From: an uncultured virus (IMG/VR IMGVR_UViG_3300031862_000640)
Taxonomy: Duplodnaviria; Heunggongvirae; Uroviricota; Caudoviricetes
Length of the DNA stretch: 20,000 bases
IMG/VR virus record: IMGVR_UViG_3300031862_000640
Reading direction: 5' to 3' (one strand)
In this document: positions 3,511 to 16,418 of the stretch, in pieces
Layout: the number at the start of each line of letters is the position of its first letter
Numbering within the stretch: position 1 is the first letter of the stretch
The notes under the pieces: generated by a model
Seen by the model: only the letters and a program-made list of their open reading frames with translations
Databases searched by the model: none
What the model was told of the DNA's origin: nothing
Program-made: the position numbers and the translations under genes

Positions 3511-4010
3511 GCGCATACAATTTTCCTGAGAGCCTGCAGACAGGTAACAACCTCTCAAAAAGAGCCCTTGAACCGCCACACAGAAGACTACTTGAGGAAA
3601 CCCTCAAACTCTTAGCGCACAAGTACCATTACCTCACGATTTCACCAGTCCGTGATTCAGTTGGCACATTCGCATATCTCGTGCGCGACCCACACAACCA
3701 AAGAGCCTACCTCATAGCAAAAGCAAGCCGCATATGGCAGGACACAATAAGCTGCCAAGCATTCTTCCCTAATCGACTACAAACCGAGAAACGACCCCTA
3801 ATGCTCGCACTCTACAACGAAGACACAAACGAAACTAAATTCTATCTATTCGACCCAACAGCCATCATCAAATTTGTCAAAGCCAACCCAAACTTCGGAT
3901 ACGACCCGAGATTTGATGTTCAAATGGTGAACTTTAGCATGAACCTCGCCCACGCATTTGACCCAAGCACAAGCTTGGAAGAAGCATGGAACCAAATAAA
4001 ATCTCAATGA
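3507..4010 (+). CDS. hypothetical protein with atypical C-rich/G-poor composition
   Basis: 167-aa ORF with coupled start; alpha/beta pattern; no confident family. Confidence 0.7.
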   Translation: MSAYNFPESLQTGNNLSKRALEPPHRRLLEETLKLLAHKYHYLTISPVRDSVGTFAYLVRDPHNQRAYLIAKASRIWQDTISCQAFFPNRLQTEKRPLMLALYNEDTNETKFYLFDPTAIIKFVKANPNFGYDPRFDVQMVNFSMNLAHAFDPSTSLEEAWNQIKSQ

Positions 4011-5808: not shown

Positions 5809-5903
5809 AGCTAATAGTGATTACTGTTGGATAATTTCCTCCTACGGTAATCATCTTATGGAGAGTCCAAATGGATTTAACGTCACGCTGGACACACCAA
5901 AAT

Positions 5904-5931
5904 TGTTGTGATGTTTATATAGGACACAACA
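5904..5931 (+). promoter_or_regulatory. archaeal TATA box flanked by an inverted-repeat operator
   Basis: TGTTGTG (5904-5910) and CACAACA (5925-5931) form a perfect 7-bp inverted repeat around TTTATATA (5914-5921), ~40 nt upstream of the wHTH gene. Confidence 0.7.
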
Positions 5932-5962
5932 TTGCGGAATGCTGTGGGATGCGAATAACACT

Positions 5963-6283
5963 ATGGTAATCAGGAGGAAATCATACAGGGCTAAATTTCA
6001 AGTCACTGCAAGCGTATTAGAATACTGTAACATGGTCGCTAGGAAATCTACAAGTATACAACTTAAATGCGGTCTTGGCAACCAGTATTTTGACTTGTTG
6101 ACGGAACTGGCTACACAGAATCTAATAAGCAAACGTCAAATTGGTGCACGGTTTGAATATATAACAACACCACTTGGCAGAGAATGGCTTCATCACTATT
6201 ACGCTCTTATGAGGTTGCAAGGAGAGGGCGACTATGGTAATGTCTTCAGTAGCGTAGCAGGGCAAGGCCTGAAACGAGTTTAG
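5963..6283 (+). CDS. winged helix-turn-helix transcriptional regulator (archaeal COG3432/HTH_45-like)
   Basis: R..FQVTASVLEYC...STSIQLKCGL...LLTELATQNLI...EYITTPLGREWL matches the family pattern (YxxTxxGxxxL wing); alternative ATG at 5939. Confidence 0.8.
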   Translation: MVIRRKSYRAKFQVTASVLEYCNMVARKSTSIQLKCGLGNQYFDLLTELATQNLISKRQIGARFEYITTPLGREWLHHYYALMRLQGEGDYGNVFSSVAGQGLKRV

Positions 6284-6286
6284 TTA

Positions 6287-6382
6287 TGGAGAACCGCTAA
6301 CAGGAGTACGAAACCATTGGGCGGTAGGCTTGTTAGCGTACTCGCTTATCTCGCAGGATAAACTTGCCCGAGCGCTTTTCTA
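6287..6382 (+). ncRNA. putative structured RNA of unknown class
   Basis: Multiple helices that need G-U pairs on the + strand: 6295-6304/6329-6338, 6304-6310/6337-6343, 6346-6350/6357-6361, 6317-6324/6364-6371, 6287-6293/6376-6382. Confidence 0.5.
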
Positions 6383-6393
6383 CAAAAAACCGA

Positions 6394-6448
6394 GCCTGCA
6401 TTAGCCAGTTACCTCCATGTGGTGCAGGCGGATAACGCTAAAACTGGC
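6394..6448 (+). ncRNA. minimal HDV-like (theta-type) self-cleaving ribozyme
   Basis: P1 GCCUGC 6394-6399/GCAGGC 6424-6429; P2 GCCAGUU 6404-6410/AACUGGC 6442-6448; P3 ACC/GGU closing L3 UCCAUGU; P1.1 CC 6415-6416/GG 6430-6431; J4/2 GCUAA with candidate catalytic C6438; no P4. Confidence 0.85.
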
Positions 6449-6486
6449 CAAGTTTGAAGAGCAATAAAAAAGAGGAGATGGTTTGA

Positions 6487-6837
6487 ATGAGCAAAAACCA
6501 TAAGCCTAAAAAGGCTTCCAGTAAGAAGAATAAAAAAGTAGAGAAGAAGCCAGTCCATGTCTGCGGCGCCATCAATGGAGTCATGGGTAAAGGAGCGTTT
6601 TCGAAAGAAGGCGACAAATTCCGCTGCGTAGAATGCGGGAAAGTACACGACAAGATTCCAGAAGGATACATGGCAGCACTTAAGAAACTAAGTCCAAAGA
6701 AAGCGGCCTTGCTTGAAAAGGGTGCGAAGAAAAACAAAGATGCGGCAAAGAACCCGATTATGGTCGAGGCTGGGAAGAAGTCATGGAAAACACGAAGAGA
6801 GAACGAGGCAGCCAAGAACAAGAAGCAGAAAAAGTAA
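6487..6837 (+). CDS. very basic protein with Cys/His Zn-ribbon
   Basis: Lys-rich; HVC...CVECGKVH; C-terminal EAGKKSWKTRREN motif; GAGGAG RBS. Confidence 0.75.
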   Translation: MSKNHKPKKASSKKNKKVEKKPVHVCGAINGVMGKGAFSKEGDKFRCVECGKVHDKIPEGYMAALKKLSPKKAALLEKGAKKNKDAAKNPIMVEAGKKSWKTRRENEAAKNKKQKK

Positions 6838-7106
6838 GGGCAATTCTCACACAGCAAAACTGTTTGACATGTGCTAAGAACTGTAAAGGTTTCTGTTCTG
6901 GCGTGCACAAACGACTTGACCCGAAAGACATTGCTGTAGGAAAGATGAAATGTGACGGAGAAAAACATGAACCAATCCTCACAAGAGCCCAAGTCGAAGA
7001 CATCACCAACATCTGGACTTACTCCATGGTTCCCCGAACCGACGAGGGAGAAGACCATGAACAACCAAGCCGTATGCTTACCGACCAAAGCCACCTTGAC
7101 CTCTGA
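6783..7106 (+). CDS. Cys-rich hypothetical protein (start uncertain)
   Basis: CLTCAKNCKGFC...KCDG fills the gap after 6837; overlaps both neighbours. Confidence 0.45.
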   Translation: MENTKRERGSQEQEAEKVRAILTQQNCLTCAKNCKGFCSGVHKRLDPKDIAVGKMKCDGEKHEPILTRAQVEDITNIWTYSMVPRTDEGEDHEQPSRMLTDQSHLDL

Positions 7107-7197
7107 CAAGCTGAAAGTCATCAGAGGCATTCTTGAGAATACGCCTGCCGAGGATTTTCACACGATTTGTCAAGTGCTATGGGAGAACGGTGCATAA
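7057..7197 (+). CDS. small hypothetical protein, 46 aa
   Basis: ATG after GAGGGAG; stop lies just before the next ATG at 7199. Confidence 0.5.
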   Translation: MNNQAVCLPTKATLTSDKLKVIRGILENTPAEDFHTICQVLWENGA

Positions 7198-7198
7198 A

Positions 7199-7441
7199 AT
7201 GGAAGCCAAAGTTGTTTTGAATAAGACTAGCAAAAAAGTGCCGAAATGTCCGAAGTGTAATGAACCAATGGACACAATTCACTATGAGGAATGTGGTCCC
7301 ATAATCTTTGATGAAGAAAAAGGTTGCTATGTTGATGGTGGACAATCGCAGCAGATCATAAAGTGTGGAAGCTGTGGTCAACCGATAGGTGGCTGCCGTG
7401 GCGATGGCGAACATTGGGGTTTCCAACCAGAGAGGGAATAG
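7199..7441 (+). CDS. Zn-ribbon protein
   Basis: CPKC...CGSC; tightly packed in the operon. Confidence 0.7.
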   Translation: MEAKVVLNKTSKKVPKCPKCNEPMDTIHYEECGPIIFDEEKGCYVDGGQSQQIIKCGSCGQPIGGCRGDGEHWGFQPERE

Positions 7442-7442
7442 T

Positions 7443-7658
7443 ATGCAAGACAGTAAAAAGAGGTCAATTCTTAAAACATTCACTTCCAAACTTGTTGAAG
7501 TAGTAATTTCAGCGACGGCGCTTCAAATAATCTTTGGACAACCTTTTATAAGCTTAGGCTTGCCAATTTTGCTTGAAGGCTTGCAGATGATAGGCTACTA
7601 TTTCCATGAAAGAGCCTGGAACAAAGTTCGCTGGGGGCAATGGCTGCGAACAATGTAA
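7443..7658 (+). CDS. DUF2061-like small membrane protein
   Basis: DSKKRSILKT...two hydrophobic segments...YYFHERAWNKVRWG matches the DUF2061 signature. Confidence 0.8.
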   Translation: MQDSKKRSILKTFTSKLVEVVISATALQIIFGQPFISLGLPILLEGLQMIGYYFHERAWNKVRWGQWLRTM

Positions 7659-7673
7659 ATGGAGGCGTTAGAT

Positions 7674-7808
7674 ATGGGAACCAAAGTTGTTTTGACTCGA
7701 TGCAAAGATGGGCGATGGCAAATCAAAGGCTATGGATTAGTCTGGGAGAAAGACCTCATTAAATCATTGAAAGAGGTCGTTCCTGAAGAAGACTGCTCAG
7801 GGTGGTGA
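7674..7808 (+). CDS. small hypothetical protein, 44 aa
   Basis: MGTKVVLTRCKDGRWQIKGYGLVWEKDLIKSLKEVVPEEDCSGW; GGAGG RBS. Confidence 0.55.
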   Translation: MGTKVVLTRCKDGRWQIKGYGLVWEKDLIKSLKEVVPEEDCSGW

Positions 7809-7812
7809 AAGA

Positions 7813-8202
7813 ATGAGCGAACAAGCGTTAGACGAGTACGAAGTTGTTGATGTCTACGCCATAGTCATCCCTCCAAGCTGGATTAAAACCGCACCACAAG
7901 ACCTTGTGCATGACGCTGAAAGACTGGTGTTTGAGTCTGAAGAACTAGCCAGAGAGTTTGCAGCGAAAGCCACAGAGAAAAACAGTTTCTGGGGCTTTGA
8001 CGTAGTGAAGAAATCGTTGCTGAAACGAAAGCAAGTTACCATCCTCAAAATGGCGCAGTTTCGAACAAGATTTATGGCATCCATTACAAACCCGAACGAA
8101 CGTAGTGCTATCACGGAAGAAGACATCGCAGGGCTCTACGCAGACTACTTTAAGTCAGGCAACAACTTCGACCAATGGTTAAAGGAGAATAGGAAACGAT
8201 GA
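7813..8202 (+). CDS. hypothetical protein
   Basis: 129 aa; GGTGGTGA RBS; ATGA overlap. Confidence 0.7.
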   Translation: MSEQALDEYEVVDVYAIVIPPSWIKTAPQDLVHDAERLVFESEELAREFAAKATEKNSFWGFDVVKKSLLKRKQVTILKMAQFRTRFMASITNPNERSAITEEDIAGLYADYFKSGNNFDQWLKENRKR

Positions 8203-8453
8203 AGAGCAAATCACTGTACCTCGTAAAATGGACGCCCCTAAAAGACATAACACCAGAAGAAGTTGACTTCCTGAAGGAACATTTCGACGAAAGCGACTCC
8301 GACCATTCACTATACATTGAAGAAGACAATTTCAACGAGGTTCTGAAAAACCTGACCAAAGTAGACAAAAAGAAATTCGCAAACCTGTTAGGCATCATCA
8401 AGGACAAACTATCCGAGAACGAAGGTGACATAAGCGTAGCCATAGGCGATTAA
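8199..8453 (+). CDS. acidic hypothetical protein
   Basis: 84 aa, translationally coupled. Confidence 0.7.
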   Translation: MKSKSLYLVKWTPLKDITPEEVDFLKEHFDESDSDHSLYIEEDNFNEVLKNLTKVDKKKFANLLGIIKDKLSENEGDISVAIGD

Positions 8454-8454
8454 A

Positions 8455-8556
8455 ATGGCTCGGCTTGAAAGAGTTTATAAATTCGCTAAAGACCACAAAC
8501 TTTCAAAGCGTGCGACAGACGAATTGGTAACTCTTGTTTTAGAAATAATTGATTAG
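8455..8556 (+). CDS. small hypothetical protein, 33 aa
   Basis: MARLERVYKFAKDHKLSKRATDELVTLVLEIID; fills the gap between two genes. Confidence 0.45.
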   Translation: MARLERVYKFAKDHKLSKRATDELVTLVLEIID

Positions 8557-8580
8557 AAGAAAAGAAAAAGGAGGAATAGT

Positions 8581-9828
8581 ATGAAAAAGTTTGAGTTTGA
8601 CCCTAATGAGGGTACGTATTACGAAAAGGTGTTCTCACCTCAAAAGGTAGAAGTGTTCAGGGATATAGTTGGAACGCAAACAGGGAAAACTGCTGTTGGA
8701 CAGCAACCGCCCAAGAAACCTCGGTTTGAAACGCGGCTTGTGCTTTCAGACAAGAATGGGCATAAGCTGGAAGTGAAAGGCAGACGACTTGTGCATCGCG
8801 TCATGCAGTATCTTCTACCATGGACTTCATTCGGTAGCGTCGGCAAACTCGCAGACCTTGAGGAAACACCAGACAAATTGCAGGACACGTTGACTAGGGC
8901 AGCAAAGAAATCACATCGCCAGTTGAAAACATACTTCGACGACGAAGGTCAGTTACACGGAATAGCAAGCGAGATACACCAGCAAATAAGCTGGGCAAAA
9001 ATCCGTGAGGTCGTGCAGGGTGCAGTCAAGAAAGCCTATCACGTTGTTGCTGAACCCGACCAAACAATGCCAACTGAGCCAAACAAATGGACATATAAGA
9101 TGCCAGTCAAGGACAAGAACAACAACGTGAGCGCATACGTGACGGTTGACGGCGGCAACAACATCATCAAAGGCAAAAGCGGAATCCGCGTCTACACAAG
9201 GCTCAGAACAGACAGAGGCGGTCCTGGCGGAGCGCCGGCGTGTCTGAACTGGTGTGGAATGTGGCTGGTGCCATTGCAATTCTTCGGCATAAAAACAGAA
9301 AGGCTCGGCATGAAAGACACTGAGGAAACACAGTTGAACATGCTGGAGATCCATTTGAAGTCGACGGCTGAAGGCATGAACGAAATCGAAGCAATCTTGG
9401 CAGCCAAAATGAAGAGCATGGCAAAAGTCGTTGAGAAACACATGATACCGCTCATAGAGGAAAGCCGTAAAGTATCCTTGGCAAAGAAAGAGATGAAAGC
9501 CATCCTCGAAGCATACGCAGAAAAAACACATCTGCCCAAATATATCATCGAACAAATCCTCGACAGCGTAGAAGAAAACACGGTCTGGGGATTCAGCAAC
9601 GCAGTATCCTATGTTCGTACACATGGGCAATTCGACGAGCGCAGAAGCCAGTTGCCACGAGAACAAAGACCACTCACACAGATCCTCGAGAACATCGCAG
9701 GAGAGGTACTTTCAATTACAAGAACTATCGCCAAACTGAAAGCAGTTCTGCCGAACAAGACTATAACACAGAGAGTCTTGACCAACCCACAGGAATTTCC
9801 ACAACTCAAAGCAATGGTCGTGAAATAA
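8581..9828 (+). CDS. DUF932/DUF945-like phage/plasmid protein
   Basis: GIASEIHQQI, SGIRVYTRL...ACLN and NTVWGFSNAVSYVRTHG resemble the family's CxN and TxWxxxNAxxxxxxH motifs; AGGAGG RBS. Confidence 0.65.
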   Translation: MKKFEFDPNEGTYYEKVFSPQKVEVFRDIVGTQTGKTAVGQQPPKKPRFETRLVLSDKNGHKLEVKGRRLVHRVMQYLLPWTSFGSVGKLADLEETPDKLQDTLTRAAKKSHRQLKTYFDDEGQLHGIASEIHQQISWAKIREVVQGAVKKAYHVVAEPDQTMPTEPNKWTYKMPVKDKNNNVSAYVTVDGGNNIIKGKSGIRVYTRLRTDRGGPGGAPACLNWCGMWLVPLQFFGIKTERLGMKDTEETQLNMLEIHLKSTAEGMNEIEAILAAKMKSMAKVVEKHMIPLIEESRKVSLAKKEMKAILEAYAEKTHLPKYIIEQILDSVEENTVWGFSNAVSYVRTHGQFDERRSQLPREQRPLTQILENIAGEVLSITRTIAKLKAVLPNKTITQRVLTNPQEFPQLKAMVVK

Positions 9829-10079
9829 TGGCTAAGAAACGGTTACTTACTGAAGCAGAAGCCAAACAAATAGCGACCCTGAAGACAGAGATAAACGACG
9901 ACTTAGTTTGCATGAGCAGAATATCACGGAACATGGAAAAACTCAGTCAAATATTCAGAGATGCTGGTTTCCTCAACACCGCAAACAAACTAGAAGGCAT
10001 CGCTAACGGCGTTACGCTTTCAGCAGCCGAAGTAATGGACGCATTCAAATATCAAGTGTCTTAACTGGTCGTGAAATAA
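9815..10079 (+). repeat. 14-bp direct repeat TGGTCGTGAAATAA bracketing one gene
   Basis: Exact copies at 9815-9828 and 10066-10079, each followed by a start codon. Confidence 0.8.
9828..10064 (+). CDS. helical hypothetical protein
   Basis: 78 aa; TAATG coupling; flanked by a 14-bp direct repeat. Confidence 0.7.
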   Translation: MAKKRLLTEAEAKQIATLKTEINDDLVCMSRISRNMEKLSQIFRDAGFLNTANKLEGIANGVTLSAAEVMDAFKYQVS

Positions 10080-14288: not shown

Positions 14289-16418
14289 GTGGCTAAGGTC
14301 AGAAAACAGATAGACCCGAAATGGCGAGAAGCTGGACGCAAAGCTGCTGAAACAAGACGTAGAAACCTTGAACGACTACGACAAAAAACAGATGACAAGA
14401 ATAAGGAAAAGACGAAGGAAACAAGCGATAAGACAAACAACGATAAAGCGAATGGTAAGTCATACGATACGAAGGAAGTGGAAACGAAGTGGCATCTAAC
14501 CTCACAGTCAAGCCTGACGTTGAAAGTAGACTTGCCAGCACGAGAACGACTCTCAGACTTCTGCGACACGCCGTGGACTGAAAAGTACAGACCGATATGC
14601 CTTAATGACTGCATAGGCGAAGTGGTTGGATACTTCAAAGCATTCGTGAAAACAGGGTCGTTCCCGCTTGCGTGCATCCTTCACGGAGAATATGGCGAGG
14701 GAAAAACGTCGATAGTCAAAGCAGCAGTCAGAGATTACTTCGTGCTTCGCGGTCTATTCCGTCGAGACGCAACATTCTTTGACATCACACACGCCAGTAA
14801 AGTCACAAGAGAGTACAACGGCATATTCGCTCCAGCCTTGTTCATAGACACAACGGTCGTTAAGTCAGGAGCCTTCAGCGCTGAAGAAATCATAAGAACC
14901 AGAGTTCAAAACTTCATGCAGTATTCCGTTGGCAAATGGCCAAAATTCATTTGCGTTAAGCCAGACATCGTAATACTTGGGGAGAACATACCAATTTCAA
15001 AACTGGAAACGAATGATGCAGTTGTCGGGTACGGCGGCATACAAAAAGTTATTCGCCCCTTTCAAAGAGCCTACAAAGGCAACATGGTCAGAATAAAAGC
15101 AGCAGGCATGCTTCCCTTCGAAGTTACGCCAGAGCACCCAGTCCTCGCAACGTACCTCAAACTCGGCAGGTACTGTATCTCCAATGTATATTCGCCCCTC
15201 AACTGGACAAAAGCACAAGATTTAGTTCCAAAGAAATGGAGAAAAAACGGACATTACGTCGTCATTCCTCGTCTAAAGGGCGATGTGGAGATGACATCTC
15301 TTAGTCTAAAACCGTTTGCGCGTCGACAACAGCATAGAATCCGCCGAGACAGGCAATATCGCCACAGCAAAGACTTTCCACTTAACGTGAACACCGCATG
15401 GCTGTTGGGTCTCTACGTTGCTGAGGGCTCTGGAAAAAGACAAATACAGTTGACTTTGCATAGTCGTGAACAACACATTTTGACAAGAGTACGGTCTATC
15501 TCTCAAGAACTACGTTCCGTAGCAGGAGCACAGACACAAGTAATACCAAACCCACACGCAAACAGCTTTGCAATCCGCATAGGGTCAGACATATTGGCGC
15601 GAGCCTTTAGGATGTGGTGTGGCGCGGGAGCGCACAATAAGAAAATTCCAGACTTCATCGCATTCCACAAAAACATCAATATTGTGCAAGCATTCTTAGA
15701 CGGATACGTCGCTGGTGACGGCTGCATCTGTCCTGAAACATACGACAATACGAAAACTCGCATTGCTATAACCACTACATCGAAAGTTCTTGTTCAACAA
15801 CTACAATTAATGTACGCAAGACTTGGAAAACCCTCTTTCATAAGCGTAGTTCCAGCTAATCCACACGTAAGAATCCTTGACCATATGAGCAAGAGCAGTG
15901 AAGCATACCATCTATACCTACCGAACCATGAAACACGATGGAAAATAGTCAAAGTTCAGCCAAACCATCTTCTTGTTCCCATCAGAAAGATTGAGCAAAA
16001 TCCCTATGAAGGACCAGTATGCAACGTTAAAACTACAGACAATACGTACTTGGTATCTAACGCGGTGGTTCACAATTGCTTTGATGAGACGGATCGCCTT
16101 GGACATGATTGTCAAGAAGTCGTGACAAGCCTCATTGAGAAGTACCCGCGAACCCGAACCCTTTGGACGTTAAATGACCTCGACAATATCATGGATAGAA
16201 TCGTGAGTAGAGCAGCTGGTGGCGTGTTCGAAGTCAAGAAGCCTGAACCAAAACTAATTGTTCCTCGGCTCAGACATATTGCTCAGTGGGAGAAAGTGAG
16301 GATACCTGAAGAAAAGATACGCGAGATAGCAAAGACGGCGCCAAGCGTTAGAGATGCCATAGGCTTACTGCAACAGCAATGTGTTCTGATTAAGGCAACA
16401 AGAGGTCGAAGAAGATGA
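14289..16418 (+). CDS. rfcS: RFC small subunit-like clamp-loader AAA+ ATPase, intein-containing
   Basis: PWTEKYRP (RFC box II), Walker A GEYGEGKT, Walker B CFDETD after splicing, sensor-1 TLN, SRA (SRC-like), lid SVRDAIGLLQ; 334 aa after removing the intein. Confidence 0.85.
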   Translation: MAKVRKQIDPKWREAGRKAAETRRRNLERLRQKTDDKNKEKTKETSDKTNNDKANGKSYDTKEVETKWHLTSQSSLTLKVDLPARERLSDFCDTPWTEKYRPICLNDCIGEVVGYFKAFVKTGSFPLACILHGEYGEGKTSIVKAAVRDYFVLRGLFRRDATFFDITHASKVTREYNGIFAPALFIDTTVVKSGAFSAEEIIRTRVQNFMQYSVGKWPKFICVKPDIVILGENIPISKLETNDAVVGYGGIQKVIRPFQRAYKGNMVRIKAAGMLPFEVTPEHPVLATYLKLGRYCISNVYSPLNWTKAQDLVPKKWRKNGHYVVIPRLKGDVEMTSLSLKPFARRQQHRIRRDRQYRHSKDFPLNVNTAWLLGLYVAEGSGKRQIQLTLHSREQHILTRVRSISQELRSVAGAQTQVIPNPHANSFAIRIGSDILARAFRMWCGAGAHNKKIPDFIAFHKNINIVQAFLDGYVAGDGCICPETYDNTKTRIAITTTSKVLVQQLQLMYARLGKPSFISVVPANPHVRILDHMSKSSEAYHLYLPNHETRWKIVKVQPNHLLVPIRKIEQNPYEGPVCNVKTTDNTYLVSNAVVHNCFDETDRLGHDCQEVVTSLIEKYPRTRTLWTLNDLDNIMDRIVSRAAGGVFEVKKPEPKLIVPRLRHIAQWEKVRIPEEKIREIAKTAPSVRDAIGLLQQQCVLIKATRGRRR
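14952..16076 (+). mobile_element. intein with LAGLIDADG homing endonuclease, 375 aa
   Basis: N-terminal C (CVKPD), block B VTPEHP, LAGLIDADG motifs LLGLYVAEGS and FLDGYVAGDG, block F/G VCNVKT...YLVSNAVVHN, +1 Cys. Confidence 0.95.

Follow-up and report, generated by a model that had tools for sequence, protein, structure and literature searches.

It is likely that the RNA encoded at positions 6394-6448 of the window (the whole stretch of DNA analysed here, 20,000 nt) is a self-cleaving ribozyme of the minimal, P4-less HDV-like type known as theta, with the role and the archaeal carrier proposed below. The 55-nt RNA lies, in the sense direction, between the gene of a winged-helix (wHTH) protein and that of a zinc-ribbon protein. 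Three results support its assignment as an HDV-like ribozyme of minimal size that stands apart from any tRNA: the match to a covariance model of theta ribozymes (R1), a pair of sub-threshold Rfam matches and conservation at three other loci (L005, L008 and L125). Self-cleavage at the 6394 site can, by analogy with known HDV-like ribozymes, be expected with good probability.

HDV-like ribozymes have been described in eukaryotes, bacteria, phages and RNA agents. In full-text searches of openly available papers we found no report of such a ribozyme in archaea or archaeal viruses. The main text and supplements of the theta ribozyme study (Kienbeck et al. 2024, PMC10879173) contain, in the part searched, no mention of archaea, and a paper on Bathyarchaeia viruses contains no mention of a ribozyme. 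What the sequences describe is a conserved ribozyme of a known kind, with predicted cleavage, in what appears to be a new host domain. The novelty is in the carrier; theta ribozymes away from tRNAs have already been published (PMC10879173). If our reading is true, the copy on a Bathyarchaeota contig, together with those in sediment elements, extends the host range of the family to the third domain, and the 6394 ribozyme provides a concrete case for what orphan thetas away from tRNAs do.

Predicted fold of the RNA and chance expectation

All parts of the nested double pseudoknot listed in the initial annotation are present and in order: a P1 of 6 bp, a P2 of 7 bp, a P3 of 3 bp, a P1.1 of 2 bp and C6438 (Table 1). 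The parsing script found a single solution in the window, 6394-6448. Cleavage is predicted, by analogy, between A6393 and G6394; G6394, the +1 base, pairs with C6429. The seventh P2 pair, U6410-A6442, is there, thus the 7-bp length of P2 holds, as does the 38-nt spacer to the ATG at 6487. J4/2 had been given as GCUAA; CUAA stands, and the leading G is the last base of the linker. C6438 occupies what is, from the analogy, the position of the catalytic cytosine, and it is retained in L005, L008 and L125. The nested fold computed by ViennaRNA was no better than the folds of shuffled sequences (z -0.86); it must be noted that ViennaRNA cannot model pseudoknots.

Table 1. Coordinates of the putative ribozyme, its neighbours and the related RNAs
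Feature	Sequence	Position	Strand	Evidence or detail
Whole minimal P4-less HDV-like ribozyme (putative)	window	6394..6448	+	script parse, model R1, Rfam sub-threshold
P1	window	6394-6399 with 6424-6429	+	6/6 Watson-Crick pairs; R1 alignment shows the same pairs
J1/2	window	6400-6403	+	4 nt
P2 (pseudoknot)	window	6404-6410 with 6442-6448	+	7/7 pairs
P3	window	6411-6413 with 6421-6423	+	ACC with GGU, 3 pairs
L3	window	6414-6420	+	UCCAUGU
P1.1	window	6415-6416 with 6430-6431	+	CC with GG, 2 pairs
Linker replacing P4	window	6432-6437	+	6 nt
J4/2	window	6438-6441	+	CUAA, C6438 first
Upstream gene, winged-helix protein, 114 aa	window	5939..6283	+	Pfam HTH_45, E 2.9e-5, 24.5 bits (cut-off 25.5)
Conserved structured stretch	window	6260..6370 (core about 6308-6329)	+	recurrence, shared motif, MFE
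Downstream gene, lysine-rich zinc-ribbon protein with C..C core, 116 aa	window	6487..6837	+	metagenome relatives, alignment A4
R1 match	window	6394-6449		35.7 bits, E 9e-7; full model, positions 1-57
R1 match	L005	182-236		32.6 bits, E 5.2e-06
R1 match	L008	2374-2428		25.1 bits, E 0.00037
R1 row	L005	2303-2331		8.1 bits, E 5.5
R1 match; tRNA-flanked theta-type ribozyme, IMG/VR	L002	584-640	+	53.2 bits, E 4.5e-11
R1 match; tRNA-flanked theta-type ribozyme, IMG/VR	L001	593-648	-	40.6 bits, E 5.7e-08
tRNA-flanked theta-type ribozyme, IMG/VR	L149	143-201	-	
tRNA-flanked theta-type ribozyme, IMG/VR	L155	143-199	-	
Pseudoknot RNA, two copies	L004	5150-5198, 5754-5802		
Pseudoknot RNA, two copies	L009	3676-3724, 5823-5871		
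Pseudoknot RNA	L006	5909-5957		
Pseudoknot RNA	L007	5879-5927		

That the motif is a chance match without function appears extremely improbable. A loose descriptor, which demanded the pairings, a G at +1, a U and a G in L3 and a C heading J4/2 and nothing else, was matched at 3 start sites when run on 20,000,000 nt of random sequence generated by a first-order Markov model of the window. This rate, 3 matches per 20 Mb of random sequence, translates into about 0.006 expected across the two strands of the window, where the same descriptor found exactly one site, 6394. What speaks for chance is that the Rfam thresholds are not reached: at gathering scores there was no match in the window. In E-value mode over 6330-6500 the best two of four rows were both HDV-like families, HDV-F-prausnitzii (RF02682; 17.3 bits, E 0.32, start 6394, gathering score 44) and drz-agam-1 (RF01787; 15.1 bits, E 0.93, start 6393, gathering score 37). 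Their P1, P3, L3 and CUAA junction align to the 6394-6448 RNA, but both models contain a P4 stem, which this RNA does not have, and its scores are far under gathering.

Model R1 is a covariance model made from 14 unique single-layout theta ribozymes of IMG/VR, with P1 and P3, on a gapless alignment (A2), which was used instead of a MAFFT alignment of 66 theta sequences in which the helices were mis-registered. The training sequences are phage thetas unrelated to the window, and none of them comes from the window, L005 or L008. The search space, 85,134 bases, consisted of the window, L001, L002 and L004-L009; six rows were returned (Table 1), and the 6394 site was the sole convincing R1 match in the window. 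The covariance-model check suggested in the initial annotation was positive with R1 (35.7 bits, full length) and negative with the Rfam HDV-like families at gathering scores, the top two rows being sub-threshold. The low expectation under the loose descriptor, the E-value of 9e-7 with an independent model and the conservation of the motif before the orthologous gene of three other loci all argue against a chance match.

Comparison with theta ribozymes

Theta ribozymes are minimal P4-less HDV-like ribozymes of gut Caudoviricetes, and their reported role is the 3' trimming of tRNAs; the J4/2 cytosine is catalytic, and a C-to-U change abolishes cleavage (PMC10879173). Thetas often follow tRNAs directly, as had been remarked at the outset, but 526 occurrences away from tRNAs have already been published, located in non-coding DNA and in the sense of the nearest gene (PMC10879173). 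The published list of isolated thetas (PMC10879173, supplement 6, part 1) follows a pattern with a P1 of 6-7, a J1/2 of 1-3 and a P2 of 7, then RCY, U, 2 nt and NCGY, and in the 3' part the 3' strands, an L4 of 5-8 nt and C-N-R-A. The 6394-6448 RNA resembles these ribozymes in having a 6-nt linker (listed L4 5-8 nt) in place of P4, an ACC/GGU P3, an L3 beginning with U-CC, GG for P1.1 and CUAA as J4/2; a 6-bp P1 is common in the published list, and the letters of the linker are identical to those of some of its isolated entries (PMC10879173). The full-length match to R1, which was built from such ribozymes, is a further likeness.

There are also differences. L3 has AUGU in the window and ACGUU in its relatives versus NCGY in all rows of list part 1, J1/2 has 4 nt versus 1-3 nt in the listed rows, and the second base of the ribozyme is a C, which is off the listed pattern (PMC10879173). 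No tRNA is adjacent to the 6394 site, and the element that carries it comes from sediment and has a link to Bathyarchaeota, whereas the published thetas belong to gut phages of Bacteroidota or Bacillota (PMC10879173). The designation theta-type is supported by the likeness to R1 and the P4-less layout; the RNA departs from the published list pattern at L3 and J1/2 (PMC10879173). The absence of a tRNA, also part of the original description, was confirmed: a tRNA search found none in the window, L005, L008 or L125.

In IMG/VR the theta core pattern occurs at no fewer than 115 loci; 88 of those 115 were parsed, yielding 71 unique examples, among them the 14 used for R1. Among the matches listed, 16 of the 71 unique parsed examples have a 6-bp P1, thus this length, correctly given in the initial annotation, is ordinary for the type and not the departure that it was taken for. 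The six linker letters of the window were seen in 7 and a 4-nt J1/2 in 5 of the 71 unique parsed examples among the matches listed. In the same set of listed matches the second base is a C in 1 of the 71, and the G1 pair closes with C in 15.

The aberrant L3 bears on the question whether the RNA is an inactive relic or a look-alike, which has lost cleavage or is only a structured leader or protein-binding site. We consider this very unlikely. It is true that L3 has a U where the listed thetas all have a C (PMC10879173), but the same L3 variants are found at the 3' ends of tRNAs, where only cleavage makes sense. L001 and L002/L003 share UCCAUGU with the window, and their ribozymes start 1-2 nt from the 3' end of a tRNA-Ala and of a tRNA-Ile. 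L149 (53.9 bits) and L155 (36.1 bits), 2 of 11 pattern matches, have the 8-nt L3 seen in the relatives of the window, and their ribozymes are flush with tRNA-Pro and tRNA-Ala. Since both variants occur in ribozymes at phage tRNA 3' ends, the unusual L3 is no sign of decay. As a separate observation, L3 of L001, L002, L149 and L155 is unlike every isolated-theta row in list part 1 (PMC10879173), and the published theta pattern probably misses such variants.

Conservation at the zinc-ribbon gene and the probable archaeal carrier

Six relatives of the zinc-ribbon protein, 64-83% identical to it, were found in sediment metagenome contigs from JGI, and a search of species genomes with a profile of all seven proteins (A4) brought up one clear relative, that of L125. 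Searches of IMG/VR with the zinc-ribbon protein, with the wHTH protein and with alignment A4 found no relative, and blastn of 5900-9900 against phage records gave no match. In two of the metagenome contigs, L005 and L008, and in L125, the orthologous zinc-ribbon gene is preceded by the same ribozyme at a distance of 28-29 nt. In the 2.4-Mb genome of L125 R1 had one match (C2:265291-265345, 32.6 bits), located just before the zinc-ribbon gene, and this ribozyme is letter-for-letter the L005 version. Between the window and L005, 50 of 55 positions are identical in the ribozyme, 47 of 100 in the 100 nt upstream, 22 of 38 in the spacer to the start codon and 118 of 150 in the first 150 nt of the gene. 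T-runs, which may be archaeal termination signals, are found directly 5' of the ribozyme in L005, L008 and L125.

Three distinct versions of the ribozyme are represented (window; L005 = L125; L008). They differ at 9 positions, all in J1/2, L3, L4 or J4/2; none of the 36 paired positions changed among them, and P1, P2 and P3 are identical in the four copies. With invariant helices, the covariation asked for in the initial annotation is absent from this lineage. This would suit an inactive relic or look-alike, and so would the presence of a different RNA in the same slot of other relatives (see below), which means that cleavage by an HDV-like fold is not indispensable. Against such a relic, the key bases are all kept, and in three versions no change falls in a helix, with the flanks down to about 47-58% identity. 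The pattern of change fits selection on the fold, and it must be noted that the identity of the helices could also reflect recent common descent. A functional ribozyme remains our preferred reading.

L125 is situated on an 863,169-nt contig labelled Candidatus Bathyarchaeota archaeon, on which an archaeal SRP RNA (167.9 bits, cut-off 96.5) and a TFB gene are present. ORFs found in the window and in L004-L009 have matches over about 5 kb of this contig (261.3-266.5 kb); the window's 415-aa protein is 67% identical to its counterpart there, and the start of the window's clamp-loader gene has 74% identity to the contig. A contig of this sort, from a MAG, can be chimeric. These matches suggest that the carrier is probably a virus-like element of sediment archaea, Bathyarchaeota, and that the ribozyme family appears to reach into archaea. 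The earlier term archaeal element thus receives indirect support, through a related element with the same ribozyme on a Bathyarchaeota contig that has SRP RNA and TFB; for the window's own host it can be taken as no more than probable.

Two genes of the window bear on the question of its host. The RFC-type clamp-loader gene (14289-16418) is split by a LAGLIDADG intein; its PDB matches are RFC subunits at both ends and PI-PkoII in the middle, and the nearest solved structures of the clamp loader are eukaryotic and archaeal RFC subunits. The C-terminal part of RFC had no relative among the genome contigs searched. The solved structures nearest to the ligase are Thermococcales ligases, which, like those nearest to the clamp loader, speak for the archaeal reading. 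Against a firm assignment, the nearest Atlas clusters of the ligase are labelled viral (Uroviricota), and its structural neighbours are bacterial.

In 151 genomes of the same class, R1 had 3 matches at E <= 0.01. On inspection only the one in G001 was real; the other two, in G083 and G024, are partial matches within coding-like sequence rather than ribozymes. When 151 genomes of the phylum were searched, 2 matches reached E <= 0.001, in G001 and G211. The latter (31.7 bits; L156 1501-1560, minus strand, corresponding to G211:C2:185175-185234) is an HDV-like motif whose P4 is a long hairpin; it lies 3' of a GAT-rich repeat and adjoins an ORF with a ubiquitin-hydrolase (UCH) domain. The G211 contig may be a eukaryotic contaminant, and the motif was not counted as archaeal in view of its UCH-domain neighbour and of the lack of any archaeal marker shown on the contig.

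Proposed role and a second RNA in the same slot

Intergenic self-cleaving hammerheads are known in the operons of phages and archaeal viruses, where they lie between genes on the same strand. The 6394 RNA resembles them as a small self-cleaver (putative in our case) between same-strand viral genes, and differs from them in fold and in chemistry; after cleavage of the HDV-like kind, all of the ribozyme stays with the downstream RNA. The zinc-ribbon gene opens a long run of genes on the same strand, and an RBS-like GGAG is found 8-12 nt upstream of its ATG. Archaeal promoter boxes were looked for by eye upstream of the ribozyme, and nothing consistent was seen.

We infer the folding, the cleavage, the chemistry and the biological role, the chemistry from established HDV-like ribozymes. 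Transcription of the + strand through the gap between the wHTH and zinc-ribbon genes would produce an RNA that folds as the nested double pseudoknot. In this fold the 2'-OH of A6393 would attack the A6393/G6394 phosphodiester, with C6438 and a bound Mg2+ as catalysts. A 2',3'-cyclic phosphate would close the upstream RNA, which carries the wHTH message and the stretch 6260-6370. The folded ribozyme, with a 5'-OH, would form the 5' end of the downstream message, and 38 nt would separate it from the start codon. As a result, the fates of the two RNAs would be uncoupled, and the long downstream message would gain a defined, compact 5' end. Whether this uncoupling of two messages and the definition of the downstream 5' end are indeed the role is, in our estimate, evenly balanced.

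An alternative is that the ribozyme is real and makes the 3' end of a structured RNA, 6260-6370, instead of shaping the downstream message. This stretch has an MFE of -41.7 kcal/mol (z -1.67), and RNAalifold, applied to three copies of it, gave only 7 weak pairs. A second contig of run X1, at about 18 times the depth, repeats 80 nt of it (6288-6367) with 5 differences between flanks unlike those in the window, and its core motif is common to L004 (about 5878) and L009 (about 3781), where it lies 3' of a different RNA described below. The recurrence and the shared motif favour such a 3'-end function, and so does the nature of HDV-like cleavage, after which no ribozyme remains on the upstream RNA, as in the trimming of tRNA 3' ends by thetas (PMC10879173). 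Yet the structured stretch is not flush with the cut site but stops about 23 nt short of it, in L004 and L009 it is not followed by an HDV-like ribozyme, and the distance of the ribozyme is constant to the gene start and not to anything upstream. The explanation is weakened above all because L005, L008 and L125 keep the ribozyme without the stretch 6260-6370. We regard it as unlikely, and prefer the action on the downstream message.

Four loci (L004, L009, L006 and L007) have a different, 49-nt RNA before the orthologous zinc-ribbon gene, and L004 and L009 each contain an extra copy before other genes, giving 6 copies overall (Table 1). We refer to it as the pseudoknot RNA. It consists of three helices and invariant junction bases. 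In the 5' part the order is AAA, the 5' strand of helix 1, UUCA, the 5' strand of helix 2, 2 nt and the 5' strand of helix 3; in the 3' part it is GGA, the 3' strand of helix 2, 3 nt, the 3' strand of helix 1, AGAA and the 3' strand of helix 3. In the alignment of the six copies (A3, 5 distinct rows) 80 of 80 cells of the 16 pairs are standard; as a control, when the partners were slid by 1-3 columns, only 26-41% of the cells paired. Eight of the 16 pairs changed on both sides, and none is broken. All eight double changes split L006/L007 from the other lineage, thus they represent one or a few events.

The pseudoknot RNA could not be matched to known families. Rfam at gathering scores found nothing in L004-L009, and in E-value mode no ribozyme or riboswitch family was found in L004 5735-5935 or L006 5880-5990. 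A pattern of the pseudoknot RNA had 0 matches in IMG/VR, and its model R2, run on 82,670 bases, found the six training copies and no others, the window being without it. In the 151 class genomes R2 made ten weak matches, in which the features of the motif were absent on inspection. Pistol (including a permuted form), twister, hammerhead and HDV-like ribozymes were each considered and rejected, as the required helices or core bases are absent; this comparison with consensus features was made by eye.

The alternation of a known self-cleaver type with the pseudoknot RNA before the same gene suggests to us that the two have a like function. On the strength of its sequence and position, the pseudoknot RNA is a candidate for a new ribozyme or a protective leader. 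The more far-reaching proposal, that it is a new self-cleaving class interchangeable with the HDV-like one and that both cut polycistronic messages of Bathyarchaeota viruses into units, we put forward as doubtful. That an unclassified pseudoknot takes the place of the HDV-like RNA at this gene is a lead, and leads of this kind yielded new ribozyme classes earlier.

Two further observations concern the surrounding DNA. A near-identical leader, GGAGAUGGUUUG, followed by a start codon is found in the window at 6470-6486 and in L009 at 3831-3845 and about 5946-5961, in front of different genes, which suggests that GGAGAUGGUUUG is a shared translation-start module. Pieces of the window at 7241-7311 and 7442-7675 recur in short contigs of run X1 at a depth of ~500-1600, compared with 15 for the window's own contig, which suggests a repeated or widely shared segment.
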